Shown piece after piece: positions 1 through 7,328 of a DNA stretch of 13,406 nt. The DNA is taken from NCBI GenBank assembly GCA_028376765.1, contig JAONBD010000036.1, positions 1 through 13,406 on the forward strand. The letters run 5' to 3'. This stretch comes from Candidatus Kapaibacterium sp. Lineage in GTDB: Bacteria > Bacteroidota > Ignavibacteria > Kapaibacteriales > UBA2268. Position numbers and translations under genes: made by a program. The notes under the pieces were generated by a model that saw only the letters and a program-made list of their open reading frames with translations, was not told the origin of the DNA and ran no database searches. Position 1 is the first letter of the stretch. Every line of letters begins with the position of its first letter.

Positions 1-775
1 TATATTTGCCTTCAATAAATGTATCAAATAATTCACGTTTAATGATAGCATCCTTACGCATATCACCTTCTTTACGCATTTCCAAAAGGTCATACTCTAT
101 TCCATGTGTATCTAGCCAAGCAATAGTCTTATCTTTATATGTATCATATCTACCTGAGAAAAGTATAATATTAGTACCCAGTTGCTTATAGGTCTTCAAT
201 AGATTAGCTACTGGCTCATTTAACTTATCCTTATCGCATTCTGATGCAATATATGGGTCTCTGCCATTAAGTAGAGATAGAGTGCCGTCAAGGTCGCATA
301 TAATGGCTTTTGGAAGATTCGTATCTTGCACTCTATACTCAAGTTCTTTCTTATAAAACTTATGAGCTAGCTCTCTAATTCTTTTCTTGCCAACTGGCTT
401 TTCACGCTTTGAATCTCTTTCAACACAGACTTCAACTGGAGTATCAATTTCTACAATCTCAACTTTTACATTTTCTTTACTTTCTTTGATATACTCTTGC
501 ACTAGTTGTGAGATTCGAGCTTCATTTTTAGATGATAAATTCAAATCATCTATGATTACGTGCTTACCTTCTTTAAGAGCCTCGATTAACAGTTCATCTC
601 TTAATTTCTTGACAAACTTTTCATTTCCTTTACTGAAATGCCCATTATCAAGCATAGCCCTCAGCTCATCTCTGTTGATTCGCTTATAAGAGTTTGGTTT
701 TTCGTCTATCAATTTCTTAGCGTAAGTTGATTTACCACTTCCGGGTAACCCACGCATTATTATTACTTTTTTCAT
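1..775 (-). CDS. pnk: Polynucleotide 5'-kinase/3'-phosphatase (T4 Pnk/PseT-like), 3' end truncated by window edge; ATG at 775..773
   Basis: The minus-strand translation begins MKKVIIMRGLPGSGKSTYAKK, an N-terminal P-loop kinase matching T4 Pnk GCPGSGKST. A downstream HAD phosphatase motif I, AIICDLDGTLSLLNGRDPY (DxDGT), is present. About 258 aa are visible, against about 301 aa for T4 Pnk. There is no stop before position 1, which explains its absence from the ORF track. The start lies 1 nt after the stop of the upstream RNA ligase gene. Confidence 0.9.
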   Translation of the reverse strand, partial: MKKVIIMRGLPGSGKSTYAKKLIDEKPNSYKRINRDELRAMLDNGHFSKGNEKFVKKLRDELLIEALKEGKHVIIDDLNLSSKNEARISQLVQEYIKESKENVKVEIVEIDTPVEVCVERDSKREKPVGKKRIRELAHKFYKKELEYRVQDTNLPKAIICDLDGTLSLLNGRDPYIASECDKDKLNEPVANLLKTYKQLGTNIILFSGRYDTYKDKTIAWLDTHGIEYDLLEMRKEGDMRKDAIIKRELFDTFIEGKY

Positions 776-776
776 T

Positions 777-1796
777 TTATTCATCCATATTTGAAAATGG
801 TTTTGAGAAGATTGGTCTTAGCATCTTCCAAATTGTTTCACTGTAATCCCTATCATCTAGCATATTAAATAACACTGATGGATATTTACAGGTTTGGAAG
901 TATAAAGCGGTTTCTTTCCTAGTACCAAGTACCTTATAATCAGCTTTAGACTTATCTTCTATTTGTTTATAATTACTTTCTAATTCGTTCTTAGTTTCAA
1001 GCACCCATTTGTAGAACTCATCTGGTACTCTTTCAATTATTTCATCTAAACTCTGCCCAGTTCTAAGGTATTCCCAAATACTTATATTTGATACATTGGT
1101 AACAATTCTGTGAATCCTTAAATACTCACTGAACTTAATTTTATATCTCAGACCGCTAGAAAACTTTATGACAAATCCTTCACGGTTATCTTCTTCAAGA
1201 GATTTCAACTTGTTAATATCAGATAAACCATTATGCTTTTTTACAATTGGAAATCCAATTTCAGGTAAATCTATTTCATCCCCAGTCTTGTTATTAACTA
1301 GACCAATTAAAATAATATCTTCAAGTCCACCATAGTCAACCACGATTCTATTATCTGGATATATTATCTCAAATAGATAAGTGATACTTTTATCAAGGCT
1401 TTCGATTACATGAGAATATTTACTCTTTAATACTCTTGTCGCTATAACAGATTGCTCACTATCAAATGAACCTCTTGTTGAAATATATGGTTCGTCATTT
1501 ACCCAATATAGTATTCCAAGCGAACCATCTAGCTTCTCGAATACTTCAAATGATTCTTCAGGGATTACTTGATTTACTTTCTCACCAAGATTAAAGAATT
1601 TAGCAAATGGTCTAGCTATAACCCTATTATGTGCATCTAATATAAGACCTCTACAGGCAAGAGTCACTTCATCCCAAAGCGAATCAAATTGCACTTTCTG
1701 AGTATAGTTGTAAATGGAGAGGTCTTCGTTAGGATGAGTTTGCACCCTAACTAGCCCCTCTTCTATATATTTATTTAGTATTTCTTTTGTAAACAT
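777..1796 (-). CDS. rnlA: RNA ligase, T4 Rnl1 (gp63) family
   Basis: The 339-aa product carries nucleotidyltransferase motif I as EKLDGSLGILY (KxDGS; T4 has K99 in KEDGSL). RPFAKFFNLGE matches T4 RPMEKFFNLNE. EGFVIK corresponds to motif IV, and RYKIKFSEYL to the T4 HFKIKSDWY motif V. It sits immediately upstream of pnk with a 1-nt spacer. Confidence 0.85.
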   Translation of the reverse strand: MFTKEILNKYIEEGLVRVQTHPNEDLSIYNYTQKVQFDSLWDEVTLACRGLILDAHNRVIARPFAKFFNLGEKVNQVIPEESFEVFEKLDGSLGILYWVNDEPYISTRGSFDSEQSVIATRVLKSKYSHVIESLDKSITYLFEIIYPDNRIVVDYGGLEDIILIGLVNNKTGDEIDLPEIGFPIVKKHNGLSDINKLKSLEEDNREGFVIKFSSGLRYKIKFSEYLRIHRIVTNVSNISIWEYLRTGQSLDEIIERVPDEFYKWVLETKNELESNYKQIEDKSKADYKVLGTRKETALYFQTCKYPSVLFNMLDDRDYSETIWKMLRPIFSKPFSNMDE

Positions 1797-1798
1797 TA

Positions 1799-2899
1799 TT
1801 ATGCCTCTGGCTCAAATAACTTATTCATTTGAGTAGTAAATTGTACATCAGTACCAAGAGAGATTTTGCCAACTTTCTCTGCGATAGTTTCTATGTATTC
1901 CATCTGCTTTAGCTTGAACAACATTTTGTTATCTCCCATAAGCTTGGCAGTATTTAGTAAATTTCTAGTAGAAGCAGTTTCTTCTCTTCTTTTTATTAAG
2001 TTAGCTTGGGCTTTCTTCTCAGCGATTAGAACTTTATTCATAATCTCTTTGACATCACCCGGAAGAATTATATCCTTTATTCCGCAACTTAATATATCTA
2101 TTCCTAGTTCACTAGCTTTAGATTTCAACGCTTCAAGAATTTCCTTCTCTATGGATAGCTTATTTTCAAGAATTGCATCAAGTGTTTTAGTTCCGATGTA
2201 TTCTCTCAGAGCTAGTTGCATTATCACATAAAGCTGTCTCTCGTAGTCATTGTTCTCAAGAACTGCTTTCAACTCATCAACTATTTTAAATCTACCGATA
2301 AAGTTTAACCTTATATTAGCCTTATCCTTAGTTAAGATTTCCTGACCAGAGAATTCCATTTGTAAAGCTCTAGTATCTATGATTTTCACATTGATAGTTC
2401 TTAAATTTTTCCAGAAATAGTAAACTCCAGCACCAAGTGTTTCAACTAGCTCGCCATCTACGAAAAGTAAGCCTTTTTGGTATTTCTCAACATTGCAGGT
2501 CTGGATATACTGTTTTGTATTTAGGTGAAAAAGGATAGTCTTATTCAGATTTATATCAACTTTCATATCGTTAGTATCAGTTATCTCAACAGAGTAGTCT
2601 TTTGCATTCTTCCAGCAAGCGTACTTGCCGGGTGTTAAGATATTCTTATAGTTCTTGCCTTCATAATATATTCCAATTTCATTGTCTGAGATTTCGATAA
2701 CATCAAGCATTTCAGCCAACTCTTCATCTTTGAGAAGTATCTCTAAATCTGTACTTGGTCTGAATTCTTTTGTCATATCGTAGATGATTACATTTTCAAA
2801 AGGTTTTACAAAATATCTACCTTCTGTAATTACTTTCTGAAAAGCATCTCCTTTGTACACCAACCCAACTGTATATGGGTATATTTTTATTAGTTTCAT
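1799..2899 (-). CDS. SPFH/band-7 (stomatin/HflK/C-like) domain protein with ~140-aa non-hydrophobic N-terminal extension
   Basis: The 366-aa product has a C-terminal two-thirds that aligns to the SPFH core: EILTKDKANIRLNF ~ stomatin ITKDNVTVKVDAV; LALREYIGTKTLDAILENK ~ TTLRSVLGQHTLDELLSER; and LGIDILSCGIKDIILPGDVKEIMNKVLIAEKKAQANLIKRREETAS ~ [43 protein letters not shown]. No N-terminal TM helix is visible. Its stop at 1799-1801 lies 2 nt from the rnl start, so it is the first gene of a three-gene coupled operon. Confidence 0.7.
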   Translation of the reverse strand: MKLIKIYPYTVGLVYKGDAFQKVITEGRYFVKPFENVIIYDMTKEFRPSTDLEILLKDEELAEMLDVIEISDNEIGIYYEGKNYKNILTPGKYACWKNAKDYSVEITDTNDMKVDINLNKTILFHLNTKQYIQTCNVEKYQKGLLFVDGELVETLGAGVYYFWKNLRTINVKIIDTRALQMEFSGQEILTKDKANIRLNFIGRFKIVDELKAVLENNDYERQLYVIMQLALREYIGTKTLDAILENKLSIEKEILEALKSKASELGIDILSCGIKDIILPGDVKEIMNKVLIAEKKAQANLIKRREETASTRNLLNTAKLMGDNKMLFKLKQMEYIETIAEKVGKISLGTDVQFTTQMNKLFEPEA

Positions 2900-3026
2900 T
2901 GTGAAAACCTTAAATTTTAATTAATATTTATATTCATTAATAACCAGAATAACTCATTCTCTTCGAGCGGAATCTGATTTTAGTTAACTCAATTACTTAT
3001 TCCTGATATTCTAAAAAAGTTTCAAT

Positions 3027-3038
3027 CTACAATTGTAG
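3027..3038. promoter_or_regulatory. Perfect 12-bp palindrome CTACAATTGTAG (CTACA/TGTAG half-sites) ~128 bp upstream of the SPFH-rnl-pnk operon start
   Basis: The palindrome is read directly from the sequence. The same half-sites occur in the two 21-bp palindromes upstream of the WYL regulator gene. Confidence 0.4.
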
Positions 3039-3209
3039 TAAATTTGATTTTTTCAGAATAGAAATCCTAATTAATTTCAATAACGGTATCCATCATCATC
3101 TGGCTGAAGAGAATGTGCTTTGTCAGAATAAACTGAAAAAGCTTTGTTACCCTAGAATTTATACCAATTTGGTATTCGACAACCATTTTTAAAAGTGGTT
3201 AGCTTTGAG

Positions 3210-3232
3210 TGCTGAATTAACAATTCAGTGCA
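3210..3232. other. Hairpin: 7-bp stem CTGAATT/AATTCAG with 3-nt loop (possibly extended by G-C/G-U pairs), located just downstream (minus-strand sense) of the tRNA-like fragments
   Basis: gtgCTGAATTaacAATTCAGtgc. No clear U-tract follows on either strand, so terminator function is uncertain. Confidence 0.35.
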
Positions 3233-3247
3233 ATACCAATTATGCGA

Positions 3248-3261
3248 CCATGTTTCCATGG
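3248..3261 (-). other. GNRA-type tetraloop hairpin CCATG-GAAA-CATGG immediately 3' of tRNA-like fragment A
   Basis: The minus-strand sequence is ...GTCCTGT CCATGGAAACATGG TCGC. It forms a perfect 5-bp stem with a GAAA loop. Confidence 0.4.
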
Positions 3262-3321
3262 ACAGGACTCGAACCTGCATTTTAATTGTGGCTATTGCTC
3301 TACCAATTGAGCTACCTTATT
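3255..3321 (-). pseudogene. tRNA-like element A: canonical D-arm and T-arm but truncated anticodon region and non-pairing acceptor ends (degenerate/pseudo-tRNA)
   Basis: Minus strand: AATAAGG-TA-GCTC-AATTGGTA-GAGC (a textbook D-arm) ... GCAGG-TTCGAGT-CCTGT (T-arm with G-U closing pair) -CCATGGA. Only 18 nt separate the D-stem from the T-stem, where about 22-23 are needed. The 5' AATAAGG cannot pair with the 3' CCATGGA, so no cloverleaf forms. Confidence 0.4.
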
Positions 3322-3346
3322 AGATAAGGATAGGACTCGAACCTAC
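3260..3346 (-). repeat. Imperfect 19-nt direct repeat G[C/T]AGGTTCGAGTCCT[G/A]TCC (copies at 3260-3278 and 3328-3346), i.e. duplicated tRNA T-arm/acceptor 3' end
   Basis: The two copies differ at 2 of 19 positions and lie 68 bp apart. Duplicated tRNA 3' ends of this kind are typical att-site scars of tRNA-targeting integrative elements, though they could equally come from a tandem tRNA pseudogene array. Confidence 0.45.
3322..3346 (-). other. tRNA 3'-half fragment B: T-arm GTAGG-TTCGAGT-CCTAT plus acceptor 3' strand CCTTATC and discriminator T, abutting element A
   Basis: Minus strand: GTAGGTTCGAGTCCTATCCTTATCT. No matching 5' acceptor, D-arm or anticodon arm could be folded from the 70 nt upstream. 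CCTTATC is complementary to the (A)ATAAGG that begins element A directly downstream. Confidence 0.4.
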
Positions 3347-3541
3347 AACCCATAGCGTGGTTGGATTTGAACTAATCTTGCTGGATATAATCATAGTAGA
3401 ACTATGTTATACAATGGTGATGTAAGAATCACTCAACTAGGCAATAGATTAGACTTTATCCAATATTTTTAAATTCTATTTGATTTGAAAGAACATTTTC
3501 GATTTGTGTCTCGTTTCTTATAATTCAAAGCTAAAGTTCAT

Positions 3542-3562
3542 CTACGCACCATATATGTGTAG
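3542..3562. promoter_or_regulatory. 21-bp imperfect palindrome CTACGCACCATATATGTGTAG, candidate operator (site 1) ~175 bp upstream of WYL regulator gene
   Basis: The ends are CTAC...GTAG and the left arm carries a GC insertion. The site is related to site 2. Confidence 0.35.
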
Positions 3563-3664
3563 CAGAAATTTTATTATTGATAACATTGAATTAAATCTAA
3601 ACTCATTGTATTATATTGAGGTTAGGTCTGAAATTAAATTTTAAAATAAATAACTCGCTTGAAT

Positions 3665-3685
3665 CTACACATATAGAGTGTGTAG
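3665..3685. promoter_or_regulatory. 21-bp palindrome CTACACA-TATAGAG-TGTGTAG, candidate autoregulatory operator (site 2) ~52 bp upstream of WYL regulator ATG
   Basis: The site has perfect 7-bp inverted arms. WYL/BrxR/CapW-family regulators typically bind inverted repeats in their own promoters. Confidence 0.45.
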
Positions 3686-3736
3686 TTAAGTAAATTTTTA
3701 CTAAATTGGGTTAAATAAATATTCAGGATTGAATAA

Positions 3737-4750
3737 ATGCCAGCAAATAAATCAGCACTAATCAGATATAAAGTAATAGATGAATGCCTTAGAAATATTT
3801 ATAAGAAATGGACACTTGCAGATTTAGTAGATGCAGTCTCTGATGCCTTATATGAATATGAAGGCATTCAAGATGGCGTGAGTTACCGCACAATCCAGCA
3901 GGATATTCAAACCATGCGGTCTGATAAGCTGGGTTATAATGCTCCTATTGTTGTATTTGAGCGAAAATATTATAAGTATGAAGACAAGGATTATAGTATT
4001 ACTAATTTACCAATCTCATCTATTGACTTGGATAAGATGAATGAAGCTGTTGGTATTCTGAAGCAGTTTAAAGGGTTTAGTTATTTCTCAGAGCTAACTG
4101 AAATGATTACAAAGCTTGAAAGTAAAGTATATTCTACTAAAAGCGATGGAGCAAGCTTCATACAATTTGAAAAAAATGATTTACTAAAGGGATTGAATTT
4201 CATCAACCCAATACACAAATCAATCATCGAGAGAAAAGCAACCTTAGTTGAATACAAATCTTTCAAAGCTGATAAATCACAGCAGATAATCTTTATACCG
4301 TATTTATTAAAAGAATATAGAAACAGGTGGTTTGTGTTGGGAGTAAATAAAAAAAGCCCTAAAAACTATTACATTCTTGCTCTTGATAGAATATCACAAG
4401 TAGAACCTTTATCTACTGAATTATATATTCATGCAGATGAAGACTTTATCTTAAATTATTTTGATGATGTATTAGGAGTATCAAAAACACCGAGACAAAG
4501 AGCCAGTACAATCGTACTGAAAATTAATAAGTCTAACTATCCATATATTGTTACTAAGCCTTTACATCCAAGTCAGAAGGTACTAAAAGAGATGGATGAT
4601 GGTGTGATATTTGAGATTCAAGTGATTTGGAATTTCGAGCTTGAGCGTGAGATATTAGGTTTTGGTGAAGGAGTGAAAGTGCTTTCTCCTCAACGCTTAC
4701 AGAAGAAAATTAAGCATAGGTTGATAGAATCTTCAAAGCATTATGAATAA
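3737..4750 (+). CDS. WYL-domain transcriptional regulator (N-terminal wHTH, central WYL, C-terminal WCX; BrxR/CapW-like)
   Basis: The 337-aa product has an N-terminal winged-HTH-like region (SALIRYKVIDECLRNIYKKWTLADLVDAV). Its WYL-domain signature is IIFIPYLLKEYRNRWFVLGVNKKSPKNYYILALDRISQVEPL (the LDRI motif). The C-terminal WCX-like segment is IQVIWNFELEREILGFGEGVKVLSPQRLQKKIKHRL. Confidence 0.75.
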   Translation: MPANKSALIRYKVIDECLRNIYKKWTLADLVDAVSDALYEYEGIQDGVSYRTIQQDIQTMRSDKLGYNAPIVVFERKYYKYEDKDYSITNLPISSIDLDKMNEAVGILKQFKGFSYFSELTEMITKLESKVYSTKSDGASFIQFEKNDLLKGLNFINPIHKSIIERKATLVEYKSFKADKSQQIIFIPYLLKEYRNRWFVLGVNKKSPKNYYILALDRISQVEPLSTELYIHADEDFILNYFDDVLGVSKTPRQRASTIVLKINKSNYPYIVTKPLHPSQKVLKEMDDGVIFEIQVIWNFELEREILGFGEGVKVLSPQRLQKKIKHRLIESSKHYE

Positions 4751-4829: not shown

Positions 4830-7328
4830 ATGCTAAATATAGATTCAAGCCAGAAGAAAAGCATGAAAGTTGGCTATGCTTTATCAATCATATTAACGAT
4901 TATGATGTTCATTACAAGGAGAGGAGTTCTCGAAGCTCAAGATGCTAATATACTAGTCTTCTTTGTAGGGTTGGCAATAACTATAGTTTATATACTAGGC
5001 ATCCAAGCTGACAAAAAGCTGAAGTTTAGATTCTGGAAAACTGATAAAGTCTTCCTGACCATATCATTATCCCATTTCCTGTTACTCTGCTTTATATTAA
5101 ATAATACTATAGAAATATTTGGCTATTTCCCTACATGGGTAATGGTATATTTAGTTTACTTCATTGCATCTTTTCAAGCATTTGGTTTAATTGATAAGCT
5201 CAGTCCAAACCTCAAAAACTTAACTTATTTCTCAATTGGAGCTGGTTTTGTATTCATACTATATTTCGCTATCTATCTTATCCCAACTTATGGAATTGGT
5301 CTAATTGGTTTAATCTTTTTAGGGCTTACATTCAACTTGTTTGTACCACTTATTATAGTGGTTTCTATAATTTCCATTATGGTTAAACTTGAGAAATCTA
5401 AAAAAGAGATGATGTACTTCCTCGCAGGTTTAATTGCACCATTATTTATTACATCATTATTCTTGACCAAATGGAATTCACTTCATACTGATATACATAA
5501 AGCTCATTCATCAATAATTCTGAGACCTGATAATACTCTGCCAACATGGGTATTGTTAAGCCAAGATATTTCAACTGACTCATTTACTTCTGACATTATC
5601 AAAGGTAGATATATCTTTGATACATTTGGTAGAATGTGGGGTGGCAATGGAATGAATAGGAATTTTGATGAACGCAGAACCCATGACCCACTGGTAAATA
5701 TTGGAATCTCTTTATTTGGCGAGCTAAACTTAGATATTGATACCAGAATCAAACTCTTAAAATCTAACTTTAATGCAAGGCATCAGAGCCATAGGAGATT
5801 GTGGTCAGGTAGAGATTTATCAACTATAGATGTACTAAACAATATCAAAGTTTATCCAGATTATAGATTAGCATATACTGAAAAGATAATCACTATTAAA
5901 AATAGTGCTTCATGGGAGAGTAATCAACAAGAATCTGTATATACATTTCATTTACCTGAAGGCTCAGTTGCTACTTCATTATCACTATGGATAGAAGGTA
6001 AGGAAGAAAAATCAAGGTTGACAACCAAGTCAAAAGCTGATAGTGCTTACGTGAGTATTGTTGGTATAGAGCGTAGAGACCCAGCATTAATGCACTGGCA
6101 GGAAGGCAATAGACTCTCAGTTACAGTATTCCCATGTACGCCCAAGGAGAATAGAATCTTTAAAGTTGGGATAACTTCACCACTTGAAAAAGAAGGTGAT
6201 AAACTAACTCTAAACAGTATATACTTTGAAGGACCATTCCTAAAGAATACACTTGAGACTTCTGTGATTGATATAGTATCAGATAATTCCGTTGAAGTTC
6301 TTAATATGCCGAGAGGATTTAATAAAGAAATCGATTCTAAATATATTTATACAGGTGAATACAGAAATGACTGGGAATTATCGCTTAAAGCGACTCCTCT
6401 CTCTTCATCACACTTCTCATTTGGTGAATATAGTTATCATATGGTTGAGCAAAAGTTAGAGTGGGTATCAGAAGATATTCAAAATATTTATTTAGATATG
6501 AATAAGAGCTGGAATGAGTCAGAATTTAATAAAGTAATCCAGCAAGCTAGAGGTAAGAATATCTATGTACATTATGATAAAATGATAAAAGTAGATAACA
6601 CAAATAGCGAGGAAGTATTTGATAAACTAAGCCAAAGAAATTTCAGCCTGTTTCCATTTAATGAAATCCCTAACCCAGATAACTCACTTCTGATTACTAA
6701 GTCTGAAGAGCTTTCACCAAACATCTCTGATATTGAAGATACTAAGTTTTATAAGAACTTAACTTCAGGCTTGCAAAAGCACGAAAGTAAAATCAATATT
6801 TTACAACTGGGTCAGATAAGCTCACCGTATCTAAAGACATTAAAAGAATATGACTTATTTAACTTCTATTCTGGAAGCTCTAGTGATATTACTAAAATAT
6901 TAACTGAAAATATATTCCCTAAAGATGTACTAGATTCAAATAGAATCGATATTGAGATGGCAGATATTAGCATCTTGCGTGATACTAATATTGTTCAATC
7001 TAAAGCACCTGACCATCTACTTCGACTATTTGCTTACTCAAACCTTATGAATAAGTACGGTAATGATTATTTCAATAGTGAAAATAAAGAAGTAGAAGAG
7101 CTAGTAAGTATTGCGAATGAAGCATATATCGTTAGTCCAGTCTCATCTTTGATTGTACTCGAAACTATTAAAGACTATGAGAGATTTGGTATTGATGAGA
7201 ATAAAAATAGCCTAAAAAATGCTTCGATGAAATCATCTGGAGCAGTTCCAGAGCCACATGAATGGGTGATGATTGGGATATTTGGATTATTATTGATAGT
7301 GGTTTATAAGAAGAGGTTCATGGCTTGA
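4830..7328 (+). CDS. Polytopic membrane protein: N-terminal ~7-TM domain (aa ~14-213), central VIT (vault/inter-alpha-trypsin) domain (aa ~340-460), C-terminal PEP-CTERM-like sorting signal; putative exosortase substrate (XrtN-system VIT protein-like)
   Basis: The protein is 832 aa, with hydrophobic helices between roughly residues 14 and 213. The VIT-like segment YTFHLPEGSVATSLSLWIEGKEEKSRLTTKSKADSAYVSIVGIERRDPALMHWQEGNRLSVTVFPCTPKENRIFKVGITSPL matches the pattern F.LP..A.V.....I.G...........A...Y..A..........L.......F...V.N.PP......V...Y...L. The C-terminus GAVPEPHEWVMIGIFGLLLIVVYKKRFMA (nt 7245-7325) combines a PEP motif, a hydrophobic helix and a basic cluster. M12 at 4863 is an alternative start. 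Confidence 0.6.
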   Translation: MLNIDSSQKKSMKVGYALSIILTIMMFITRRGVLEAQDANILVFFVGLAITIVYILGIQADKKLKFRFWKTDKVFLTISLSHFLLLCFILNNTIEIFGYFPTWVMVYLVYFIASFQAFGLIDKLSPNLKNLTYFSIGAGFVFILYFAIYLIPTYGIGLIGLIFLGLTFNLFVPLIIVVSIISIMVKLEKSKKEMMYFLAGLIAPLFITSLFLTKWNSLHTDIHKAHSSIILRPDNTLPTWVLLSQDISTDSFTSDIIKGRYIFDTFGRMWGGNGMNRNFDERRTHDPLVNIGISLFGELNLDIDTRIKLLKSNFNARHQSHRRLWSGRDLSTIDVLNNIKVYPDYRLAYTEKIITIKNSASWESNQQESVYTFHLPEGSVATSLSLWIEGKEEKSRLTTKSKADSAYVSIVGIERRDPALMHWQEGNRLSVTVFPCTPKENRIFKVGITSPLEKEGDKLTLNSIYFEGPFLKNTLETSVIDIVSDNSVEVLNMPRGFNKEIDSKYIYTGEYRNDWELSLKATPLSSSHFSFGEYSYHMVEQKLEWVSEDIQNIYLDMNKSWNESEFNKVIQQARGKNIYVHYDKMIKVDNTNSEEVFDKLSQRNFSLFPFNEIPNPDNSLLITKSEELSPNISDIEDTKFYKNLTSGLQKHESKINILQLGQISSPYLKTLKEYDLFNFYSGSSSDITKILTENIFPKDVLDSNRIDIEMADISILRDTNIVQSKAPDHLLRLFAYSNLMNKYGNDYFNSENKEVEELVSIANEAYIVSPVSSLIVLETIKDYERFGIDENKNSLKNASMKSSGAVPEPHEWVMIGIFGLLLIVVYKKRFMA

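Follow-up and report, generated by a model that had tools for sequence, protein, structure and literature searches.

Gene content of the locus

The window, that is, the whole analysed stretch of 13,406 nucleotides, belongs to a bacterial contig of Candidatus Kapabacteria. The open reading frame list and translations placed three genes on the minus strand, at 1799–2899 (366 aa), 777–1796 (339 aa) and 1–775 (258 aa), the last of which runs off the window start, which is also the contig end. Re-reading of the sequence gave the junctions GCA-TAA-TA-ATG (1801–1794) and GAA-TAA-A-ATG (779–773), i.e., the gaps of 2 nt and 1 nt from which the original prediction deduced a single operon, and such an operon is very likely. 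Neither a promoter nor a terminator could be called at the locus.

The first gene (1799–2899, minus strand) encodes a soluble SPFH/Band-7 (slipin-like) protein, as judged from Pfam, hydropathy, repeats and an AF2 model. The Pfam Band_7 match covers residues 137–307 (E 9e-30), and the NCBI label is "slipin family protein." Two beta modules (residues 1–64 and 65–130) are followed by the SPFH domain and a long C-terminal helix (281–344). The beta module with which the SPFH domain begins is present in two further copies in residues 1–130 (pairwise BLAST E of 2e-5 and 7e-6), and homologues contain two to four copies, giving forms of 366, 433, and 501 aa. No transmembrane segment serving as a membrane anchor was found in the protein, the top 19-aa Kyte-Doolittle mean being 1.19 with no segment above 1.6; hydropathy and the module repeats thus agree with the earlier description of an anchorless protein with a soluble N-domain. 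More than 6,900 homologues were found at E ≤ 1e-5, with query coverage of 87%–100% among the 120 matches listed. The single-chain AF2 model was of moderate confidence (pLDDT 73, pTM 0.48), and the nearest solved structures were stomatin, HflK/C, prohibitin, and QmcA. An NfeD partner was not detected by Pfam among the neighbours of the gene.

The second gene (777–1796, minus strand) encodes an RNA ligase that is ATP-dependent and belongs to the Rnl1 (PF09511) family. The match to RNA_lig_T4_1 in Pfam scored 62.9 bits (E 5e-17) against a cut-off of 28.3, the T4 Rnl1 structures 2c5u, 5tt6, and 9do4 all matched with E about 1e-16 (2c5u being the closest, E 2e-16), and K88-x-D-G, E206-G, and K219/K221 were invariant across 20 homologues. 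A score of 69 bits lies below the 242-bit NCBIfam equivalog cut-off for T4 RnlA. The third gene (1–775, minus strand) encodes a T4-type polynucleotide kinase-phosphatase (Pnkp), with an N-terminal kinase (P-loop GLPGSGKST; AAA_33, E 5e-20) and a C-terminal HAD phosphatase (motif DLDGTL; HAD_PNKP, E 6e-30); about 30–40 C-terminal residues are missing at the contig end. The proposed Rnl1-type and Pnkp-type identities hold on the basis of Pfam and, for the ligase, the T4 Rnl1 structures.

Structured RNA upstream of the SPFH gene

Upstream of the SPFH gene, the sequence at 3434–3181 (minus strand, as are all elements of the RNA) encodes a predicted structured RNA about 255 nt long. It comprises two small 5′ hairpins, two tRNA-like modules, each circularly permuted, and an H-type pseudoknot. 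The original prediction was right about the genes and the protein families and very likely about the operon, but it overlooked this RNA, as well as a WYL regulator gene and two palindromes.

The window copy of the 5′ domain is divergent, and its coordinates (3392–3434) are approximate; the hairpins are GAGUGA-UUCUUAC-AUCAC (3434–3417) and CAUAG-UUCUA-CUAUG (3406–3392). Most loci contain conserved blocks upstream of the part described by our model R1 (module 1), and RNAalifold analysis of 29 sequences gave two hairpins with compensatory change in 10 of 14 pairs.

Module 1 (3291–3356) is a permuted, YrlA-like tRNA module consisting of a closing stem (3356–3352 with 3295–3291), a T-arm (3346–3330), a closed acceptor hairpin (3329–3315), and a D-arm (3312–3297), and has no anticodon loop. 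It matched the Rfam YrlA model at positions 23–85 with 47 bits (E 5e-8), under the gathering threshold of 69 bits, the Ro-binding stem (model positions 1–22 and 86–114) being unmatched; the score against R1 was 91 bits. Among 73 sequences, in an alignment fitted to this model of our own, pairing is seen in 97.3% of cells and compensatory change in 24 of the 25 pairs, a result that none of 500 shuffles equalled. Being de-permuted with an artificial loop, module 1 was called a tRNA in 23 of the 73 loci, versus none in the native order.

Module 2 (3212–3278) is also permuted, its opening lying in the variable loop. It includes a T-arm (3278–3262) that covaries (helix 5), a GAAA-capped acceptor hairpin (3261–3248), a D-like arm (3245–3230), and an anticodon-like arm, CUGAA-UUGUUAA-UUCAG (3228–3212). 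After de-permutation ARAGORN recognised module 2 as a tRNA at 20 of the 74 loci, compared with 3 for shuffled and 0 for reversed sequences; the window copy, with an acceptor hairpin of only 5 bp, gave no call. In several loci the anticodon arm is missing, and of the 3′ part only T-arm 2 and the pseudoknot remain.

The pseudoknot lies at the presumed 3′ end of the RNA (3181–3206), with stems P1, AAAG (3206–3203) with CUUU (3195–3192), and P2, AACCA (3200–3196) with UGGUU (3185–3181), and an A-rich loop, UAAAAA (3191–3186). The motif is present in most loci. Mean P2 complementarity was 4.54 with the locus's own tail versus 3.44 with the tails of other loci, and the observed mean was matched in 0 of 5,000 permutations. 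Perfect P2 pairing was found with 44% of own and 4% of others' tails, and 48 sequences contained 36 distinct P2 strands. Rfam reported no family at E ≤ 1 in the pseudoknot region. The stretch of approximately 280 nt from the pseudoknot to the SPFH start shows no conservation relative to locus L007.

Conservation and presumed regulation of the operon

The SPFH survey covered 80 species-level loci, one per species, all of them on bacterial chromosomal contigs of Bacteroidota and Chlorobiota. The RNA was found in 70 of these loci, on the same strand and 276–893 nt upstream of the SPFH gene, and three of the remaining ten have no upstream DNA. RtcB is encoded in 51 of the 80 loci, in 43 of them on the same strand within 3 kb downstream. 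PrfH, RlaP nucleotidyltransferases, and Pnkp are also recurrent, and half of the loci possess arrays of spare tRNAs that are rich in those for Tyr, Asp, Asn, His, Lys, Gln, and Glu.

The synteny of SPFH, Rnl, and Pnkp extends beyond a single sequence, since 4 of the 44 Rnl loci with enough flank have an SPFH gene upstream of the ligase. The order WYL-RNA-SPFH-Rnl-Pnkp is repeated in L082 and L096, and looser variants of it occur in L101 and L118, all four with the RNA. The version with Rnl1 and Pnkp therefore recurs and can be placed in a known class, with the ligase swapped. In the other 40 Rnl loci the Rnl1-Pnkp pair occurs without SPFH, and therefore the enzymes can do without this protein; among 59 Rnl loci, 20 have a full-length Pnkp homologue immediately after Rnl. 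In the three closest SPFH relatives (L001, L002, and L007), the regulator and the RNA are present, but TrpRS comes next and no ligase adjoins SPFH; SPFH and the RNA can therefore occur without an adjacent ligase.

The presumed transcription regulator of the operon is a divergently encoded WYL-WCX domain protein (3737–4750, plus strand; Pfam WYL E 1e-7 and WCX E 7e-11), which is also matched by PADLOC WYL models. Its close homologues (phmmer E 1e-100 to 1e-133) are divergent and upstream of SPFH in 36–38 of the 80 loci and precede Rnl in 7 of the 44 Rnl loci. Two 21-bp palindromes with the consensus CTACRCA-N7-TGYGTAG were found, the RNA-proximal CTACGCACCATATATGTGTAG (3542–3562), a candidate operator, and the WYL-gene-proximal CTACACATATAGAGTGTGTAG (3665–3685); 0.03 matches to the motif are expected in the window by chance. 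With at most one mismatch, the palindrome occurs in 20 of the 80 SPFH loci, 130–550 nt upstream of the RNA, where it is enriched 11-fold versus the rest of the loci. Locus L083 has it as well, between Rnl and the WYL gene, and in L104 it precedes Rnl. The palindromes could serve as the binding site of the regulator.

Proposed function and relationship to known systems

The operon is of a bacterial RNA-repair kind earlier predicted by comparative genomics, with the Rnl1-type ligase and Pnkp filling the slot where RtcB usually sits. The locus is probably a chromosomal, stress-inducible operon of the Band-7-associated class and may work as follows. In response to an inducing signal, the WYL regulator would act on the promoter region bearing the palindromes. 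A common transcript would yield the structured RNA first, from the 5′ hairpins through the permuted domain whose acceptor end is closed and which lacks an anticodon loop, and the second permuted domain, with its anticodon-like arm, to the terminal pseudoknot, and would then encode SPFH, Rnl, and Pnkp. A ribotoxin could cut tRNA or other RNA, leaving 2′,3′-cyclic phosphate and 5′-OH ends, which Pnkp would convert into 3′-OH and 5′-phosphate ends for resealing by the ligase. Healing by Pnkp and then sealing by Rnl1 is established T4 chemistry; in most relatives RtcB may perform the same task in a single step. The anchorless SPFH protein, like other SPFH proteins, probably builds a soluble ring or cage and could bind RNA, forming an oligomeric scaffold on the tRNA-like RNA. 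Together they would be a scaffold or adaptor recruiting or confining substrates and repair enzymes, comparable to Ro60 with Y RNA.

A rather unlikely alternative is that the tRNA-like RNA acts mainly as a decoy or sentinel, not a scaffold, its tRNA mimicry luring toxins directed at tRNA, such as anticodon nucleases. The WYL regulator would sense cleavage of the RNA or the resulting fragments, SPFH would protect or present it, and Rnl and Pnkp would reset it along with cellular tRNAs. The 7-nt anticodon-like loop of module 2, with an "anticodon" varying between loci, is consistent with this role, and so are the spare arrays, since known anticodon nucleases usually attack these tRNAs. Binding to single-stranded nucleic acids is known from other WYL domains. 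RtcR, the regulator of the analogous Rtc system, is reported to sense tRNA fragments (PMC7790460). However, the best-conserved part of the RNA, module 1, is devoid of any anticodon loop, several loci have no anticodon arm, and no sign of diversifying selection above plain variability was seen.

The original prediction framed the locus as a T4-type phage or prophage counter-defence module, with SPFH possibly having an independent anti-defence function, which now appears very unlikely. Rnl1-type ligases are indeed frequent in phages (2,398 of 50,697 records), a serine recombinase gene is located at the far end of the contig, and a NadV-NadM pair lies close by. But SPFH itself had no relative in the 50,697 phage genomes beyond one weak partial match (23.5% identity, 33% of length), and a pattern-based scan of 2.9 million IMG/VR viral contigs found no relatives. 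The neighbours identified by Pfam are an exosortase, its VIT-domain partner, and NAD salvage genes, with no phage structural or replication genes, the regulator is of a cellular type and conserved across species, and all 80 loci are bacterial chromosomal.

It is also highly improbable that SPFH is an ordinary membrane-scaffold or protease-modulating slipin with incidental RNA-repair neighbours. Its NCBI name and nearest solved structures point to a slipin, but the transmembrane segment and the NfeD partner are missing, only 2 nt separate its stop codon from the ligase start codon, and the linkage with the RNA (70/80 loci) and RtcB (51/80) spans many genera. The idea of a functionless remnant of a decayed tRNA array, suggested by the lack of ARAGORN tRNAs in the window, a weak Rfam tRNA model match, and real tRNA arrays at the same position in other loci, is effectively refuted by covariation in module 1 and the pseudoknot, since the same permuted order is common to 73 sequences and a decaying pseudogene would not stay paired over phylum-level divergence.

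An RNA-repair operon with an SPFH protein has precedents. Burroughs and Aravind (NAR, 2016) reportedly noted that Band-7 proteins adjoin RNA ligases and are associated with tRNA-like RNA. Their prediction of Band-7/b7a-tRNA/RtcB RNA-repair systems, as related in bioRxiv 10.1101/312249, means that the implied novelty of the SPFH partner was overstated. As described there, these systems share with our locus an SPFH/Band-7 gene beside an RNA ligase and a tRNA-like non-coding RNA; the proposed role, a scaffold or cofactor for ligation, accords with the scaffold option of the original prediction, and SPFH may play such a role here. The differences from the systems so described are the ATP-dependent Rnl1-type ligase with a Pnkp healing partner instead of RtcB, and an RNA with tandem permuted tRNA-like modules and a pseudoknot instead of a normal cloverleaf. 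The accessory genes for RlaP and PrfH found in loci related to ours are a further shared feature. In P. aeruginosa, an SPFH gene lies within the rtc locus (PMC13086221).

The Salmonella rsr-yrlBA-rtcBA operon, comprising a Ro60 orthologue, the Y RNA YrlA, RtcB, RtcA, and the regulator RtcR, likewise combines a tRNA-like RNA (T-arm, closed acceptor stem, and D-arm), an RNA ligase, and a dedicated regulator. In our case the partner protein is SPFH, with no Rsr/TROVE gene in the window, and the regulator is a WYL protein rather than a sigma-54 activator. Repair of tRNA-Lys against PrrC in phage T4 relies on homologous Pnkp and Rnl1, encoded by adjacent genes as here, and presumably on the same heal-then-seal chemistry of 2′,3′-cyclic phosphate and 5′-OH ends; unlike T4, our locus is cellular, its ligase is under the T4 RnlA equivalog cut-off, and it includes three elements absent from T4, namely SPFH, the structured RNA, and a regulator of its own. 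The eukaryotic vault particle contains the major vault protein (MVP), vault RNA, and the TROVE protein TEP1. MVP also has N-terminal beta repeats, then an SPFH-like shoulder and a long helix, and is associated with a small non-coding RNA. The longest alignments to the SPFH model were those of MVP chains (395–464 Foldseek columns), although with low TM-scores of 0.40–0.49; there are two extra repeats here and nine in MVP, the Pfam Vault and MVP_shoulder models had no sequence-level match in the SPFH protein, and the core domain is related much more closely to stomatin.

The TrcR regulon of Anabaena brings together the slipin gene alr0740, rtcB, and an array of spare tRNAs, which are co-repressed and, under translational stress, induced, with co-derepression of the slipin gene and rtcB (PMC10272220). 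Unlike here, these genes are dispersed, the repressor is of the ribbon-helix-helix type, and a tRNA-like RNA is unreported there. A functional connection of SPFH proteins with RNA ligases and tRNA is supported experimentally by this regulon (PMC10272220).

Probable operon structure and genomic setting

Three minus-strand genes encode an SPFH (Band-7) protein (1799-2899, 366 aa), a T4 Rnl1-type RNA ligase (Rnl; 777-1796, 339 aa), and a T4-type kinase-phosphatase (Pnkp; 1-775, 258 aa, truncated at the contig end). The ligase start lies 2 nt past the SPFH stop, and the junctions read TAA-TA-ATG (SPFH/ligase) and TAA-A-ATG (ligase/Pnkp). The ligase matched PF09511 (RNA_lig_T4_1) with 62.9 bits against a cut-off of 28.3 and aligned with T4 Rnl1 structures, including 2c5u, at E ~1e-16 over the region spanning KxDGS and EGxV...KxK; the residues of the KxDG, EG, and KxK motifs were invariant in 20 homologues. 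It scored 69.4 bits, under the equivalog cut-off of 242 bits of the NCBIfam model TIGR02308 for T4 RnlA, and its C-terminal domain (aa 262-339) remained unaligned to T4 Rnl1. Pnkp comprises an AAA_33 kinase domain (aa 4-130) with the P-loop GSGKST and a HAD_PNKP phosphatase domain (aa 155-258, Pfam) with the HAD motif DLDGT; its C-terminus is missing at the contig end.

The SPFH protein contains a Band_7 domain at aa 137-307 (Pfam, E 9e-30) followed by a long oligomerisation-type helix, a trait of slipins, stomatins, and HflKC. It has no N-terminal membrane anchor, the hydropathy maximum being 1.19, and no NfeD domain was found among the proteins of the window. Residues 1-130 consist of two copies of a five-stranded beta module that also opens the SPFH domain, and the number of such modules varies from two to four across SPFH homologues. 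In the AlphaFold2 model (pLDDT 73), three successive five-stranded beta modules precede the alpha/beta core of the SPFH domain, after which comes a helix ~60 residues long. The original prediction of tightly spaced genes for Rnl1 and Pnk family enzymes, headed by an SPFH protein with a soluble N-domain in place of a membrane anchor, was right in every particular, since gene calls, junctions, Pfam assignments, hydropathy, and the beta modules all agree. PADLOC contained no defence-system model matching SPFH or Rnl.

The window is an entire contig of 13,406 nt, which NCBI assigned to a Candidatus Kapabacteria bacterium, and the remainder of it carries cellular genes. An 832-aa multi-pass VIT-domain protein and an exosortase-family protein, with overlapping stop and start codons, are encoded on the plus strand at 4830-8644 and are unrelated to the operon. 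The minus-strand genes at 9570-12052 encode a two-gene NAD salvage route, nicotinamide phosphoribosyltransferase NadV and NadM-Nudix; NadV was also observed near the SPFH locus L063 and, in locus L157, immediately upstream of an Rnl1 homologue. On the plus strand at 12202-13404, a frame that runs off the contig end encodes a serine recombinase of the large type, with Resolvase, Recombinase, and zinc-ribbon domains, which may lie at the edge of a mobile element. Genes prrC, rloC, and hsd were not found in the window. The SPFH protein had no credible match in 50,697 phage genomes, and scanning 2.9 million IMG/VR contigs by pattern revealed no relative, while the ligase, unlike SPFH, matched 2,398 phage records. 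The idea of a phage-encoded counter-measure to a host anticodon nuclease does not hold for this bacterial contig with cellular neighbours and an SPFH protein that had no relative in these phage collections.

Predicted tandem tRNA-like RNA upstream of the SPFH gene

The gap upstream of the SPFH gene is 837 nt long and holds a predicted RNA element. Rfam search revealed a YrlA-like tRNA mimic at 3354-3293 (47 bits, E 5e-8, gathering score 69) and a weak tRNA match at 3316-3260; at gathering thresholds, the element matched neither YrlA nor any other Rfam family, and 11 related loci also had no YrlA match at this threshold. ARAGORN found 0 tRNAs in the window; the tRNA-like reading emerged solely from Rfam and comparative alignment. 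Thermodynamic folding alone would have missed the RNA, since the minimum free energy of region 3445-3175 was not significant (z-score -1.58).

When eleven related intergenic regions were aligned to the window, a conserved element with evident compensatory changes emerged. A covariance model, R1, was built from the best-aligned 98 positions. R1 scored 91 bits at 3361-3262 of the window. Of the 80 SPFH loci, 70 have a single strong match of 54-100 bits, which lies on the same strand as SPFH and 276-893 nt before its start; 3 of the 10 loci without a match simply have no upstream sequence. In an alignment of 73 sequences, which was itself fitted to the model, pairing holds in 97.3% of cells and double-sided change was seen for 24 of 25 pairs, a result reached by 0 of 500 shuffles, and pairing drops to 33-52% in slid-partner controls. 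MAFFT alignments of the full RNA and of the pseudoknot were out of register in the length-variable loops.

All elements of the RNA lie on the minus strand. A 5' domain of two hairpins (3434-3392) precedes module 1. The closing stem of module 1 (3356-3352 with 3295-3291) surrounds, in order, a linker resembling a variable loop, a T-arm (3346-3330), a loop-closed acceptor stem (3329-3315) followed by UA, and a D-arm (3312-3297). With this order of helices, module 1 is a tRNA that, like YrlA, has been circularly permuted at its anticodon loop. The likeness to YrlA (Rfam RF02553) covers model positions 23-85, comprising the T-arm, the closed acceptor hairpin, the D-arm, and the closing stem, and all four helices of this domain covary in the window family; the Ro-binding stem of YrlA (model positions 1-22 and 86-114), in contrast, is unmatched in the window. 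A gene for the Ro protein Rsr (TROVE) was found neither in the window nor among the 11 identified recurrent neighbour families. A third T-loop-like sequence, GAUUAGUUCAAAUCC, is located just upstream of module 1 at 3377-3363 (minus strand); no convincing stem accompanies it, and it may be what is left of an additional module.

In module 2, another T-arm (3278-3262) leads into an acceptor hairpin capped by GAAA (3261-3248), followed by a D-like arm (3245-3230) and then by an anticodon-like arm (3228-3212). It is a second tRNA mimic, opened within the variable loop. The "anticodon" in its 7-nt loop varies by locus, being GUU in the window and UUU, UAG, CAU, CAG, or others elsewhere; some loci have two anticodon-like arms and others none. 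De-permutation made both modules recognizable to ARAGORN in part of the loci. With an artificial anticodon loop, module 1 was called as a tRNA in 23 of 73 loci, compared to 0 of 73 in the native order, and module 2 in 20 of 74 loci with diverse anticodons, compared to 3 shuffled and 0 reversed sequences. A tRNA in normal order, running from the D-arm of module 1 to the T-arm of module 2, obtained marginal Rfam tRNA scores of 30-36 bits and was dismissed as a misreading, because the flanking half-stems pair inside their own hairpins with covariation.

The 3' end of the element forms a predicted H-type pseudoknot (3206-3181). Its P1 (AGAAG/CUUCU type) is conserved in sequence, its loop is rich in A, and its P2, which is represented by 36 distinct strands in 48 loci, covaries freely. 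The first rule-based pseudoknot finder passed 32% of shuffled controls and was replaced by a test comparing complementarity to a locus's own tail and to the tails of other loci; the mean was 4.54 for own tails versus 3.44 for those of other loci, and 0 of 5000 permutations reached 4.54. The topology resembles a preQ1-I riboswitch in its 5-bp P1 and A-rich L3, but an L2 with the ligand-pairing C is absent and no Rfam PreQ1 match was found in the window at E <= 1; this reading was rejected. Sequence similarity to the nearest relative ends exactly past the pseudoknot. Two perfect palindromes occur in the following region, which is not conserved with one of the nearest relatives, L007: ATACCAAATTGGTAT at 3175-3161, directly past the pseudoknot, and CTACAATTGTAG at 3038-3027, 128 nt before the SPFH start, with half-sites common to the candidate operator.

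A divergent gene at 3737-4750, on the strand opposite to SPFH, encodes a protein with WYL and WCX domains (Pfam) that is also matched by the WYL models of PADLOC; an N-terminal helix-turn-helix domain was not detected by Pfam at E <= 0.01. Two 21-bp palindromes of the form CTACRCA-N7-TGYGTAG are located between the WYL gene and the RNA, at 3685-3665 and 3562-3542, compared to 0.03 expected by chance. The palindrome (consensus CTACGCAAAAAGACTGCGTAG, with at most 1 mismatch) is present in 20 of the 80 SPFH loci; in every case it lies upstream of the RNA by 130-550 nt, a zone in which it is 11-fold enriched relative to the remainder of these loci. In the SPFH-less locus L083, it lies between the WYL gene and Rnl. 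The window thus displays the domains, the divergent position, and the conserved intergenic palindrome of a WYL regulator, and the palindrome is the obvious candidate operator to which this protein would bind. A scan of 2700-3900 for sigma-70 promoters and intrinsic terminators gave no more matches than shuffled sequences and is uninformative for this phylum.

Gene neighbourhoods of the SPFH and ligase families

With over 6,900 homologues at E <= 1e-5, the SPFH family is large; those listed, 120 in number, span 87-100% of the query. Genomes of Bacteroidota and Chlorobiota supplied 80 SPFH loci, each from a different species, whose neighbouring proteins we clustered; the clusters were identified with Pfam. 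The SPFH homologues are 46-58% identical over the full length. The RNA ligase RtcB was found in 51 of these loci, within 3 kb downstream on the same strand in 43 and as the next gene in 27. A WYL regulator, nearly always divergent and upstream, was present in 36 loci and a small TPR protein in 25. Other recurrent neighbours were an RNaseH-like protein of PF04308 (12 loci), an AAA ATPase (11), PrfH (8), RlaP nucleotidyltransferases (6 + 6), and Pnkp (3). This set is the gene vocabulary of bacterial RNA-repair systems. In 41 of the 80 loci, the 3.5 kb upstream of SPFH additionally hold canonical tRNA genes, or arrays of as many as 13, on the SPFH strand; the window has none. Tyr(GTA), Phe, Gln(TTG), Asp, Lys(TTT), Asn, His, and Glu tRNAs dominate in the arrays, and tRNAs for Ala, Gly, Thr, and Val are almost absent. 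They resemble spare copies that sit beside the repair operon.

A ligase of the window type is rare in this setting and occurred only in L045. The survey of 80 metagenomic Rnl loci, of which subsets of 59 and 44 were used for counts, showed Pnkp immediately after Rnl in 20 of 59, a WYL regulator upstream of Rnl in 7 of 44, and SPFH upstream of Rnl on the same strand in 4 of 44. The gene order of the window is exact in two of the latter (L082 and L096) and includes a spacer in the other two (L101 and L118), and the RNA is present in all four. Consequently, SPFH-Rnl synteny is not unique to this sequence and recurs, yet for either partner it is found in a minority of loci. A partial R1 match (44 bits), confined to module 1, was observed in L102 at 2231-2298, directly upstream of an SPFH-less Rnl-Pnkp pair; the tRNA-like module may occasionally accompany the ligase alone.

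The three nearest SPFH relatives (L001, L002, and L007) have kept the WYL gene, the RNA, and SPFH, and carry tryptophanyl-tRNA synthetase after SPFH and no ligase, indicating that the SPFH-RNA pair can stand without an adjoining ligase. Since the RNA accompanies the SPFH clade in most species loci (70 of 80), SPFH and the RNA are the constant pair, and the ligase module is interchangeable. This linkage reverses the original view of SPFH as an add-on to Rnl and Pnkp.

Relation to known systems and proposed function

[quoted passage not shown] The same source describes YrlA as occasionally found beside Band-7 and, as far as its account goes, the existence of b7a-tRNA as lacking experimental validation. 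The window resembles this class, so summarised, in that Band-7 adjoins an RNA ligase, although of the Rnl1 type instead of the usual RtcB. As in that class, the SPFH clade of the window is tied elsewhere to RtcB, PrfH, RlaP, and Pnkp, and its RNA is likened, as a tRNA-like RNA, to YrlA or, by description only, to b7a-tRNA. The window operon is thus a ligase-swapped member of the Band-7-associated RNA-repair class on a bacterial chromosome. The finding is real, yet it is not a new kind of system, and its most informative parts, the RNA and the regulator, lie outside the three-gene stretch to which the original prediction was confined.

Related arrangements have been reported in other bacteria. 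In Anabaena, the trcR mutation and translation-targeting antibiotics each derepress a slipin gene, rtcB, and an array of 26 tRNAs (PMC10272220), and the rtcA/rtcB/rtcR locus of P. aeruginosa contains an SPFH gene (PMC13086221). The literature searched contained no paper linking WYL regulators to such operons or describing a permuted tandem with a pseudoknot, and no experimental test of the role of SPFH/Band-7 and a tRNA-like RNA in RNA repair, predicted since 2016.

By analogy with Ro and Y RNA, we favour a function of SPFH and the RNA as a soluble oligomeric scaffold with an RNA adaptor. The main rival holds that the RNA acts as a decoy or sentinel instead of a scaffold adaptor. A more specific version of the scaffold, which we regard as unlikely, is that SPFH, with its MVP-like beta repeats, SPFH shoulder, and long helix, forms a vault-like cage on the tandem permuted-tRNA RNA. 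The vault (MVP) analogy is a lead and not a result: the Pfam Vault repeat and MVP shoulder had no match even at E <= 5 in 49 SPFH family members, leaving kinship with MVP without sequence-level support. Such a cage would be a bacterial ribonucleoprotein compartment capturing broken tRNAs, which would be resealed by whichever ligase module the genome supplies, and the WYL protein, sensing RNA damage, would switch the system on. If so, neither the RNA architecture (two circularly permuted tRNA mimics and a 3' pseudoknot, in ~90% of loci) nor the WYL regulator nor the operator motif would have been described so far.

The scaffold hypothesis is directly testable in vitro, since the locus is compact, with a regulator, a candidate operator, an RNA of ~255 nt, SPFH, and two enzymes of well-understood T4 biochemistry. 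The spare tRNA arrays in many relatives suggest a broader co-regulated tRNA-damage response in Bacteroidota and Chlorobiota.
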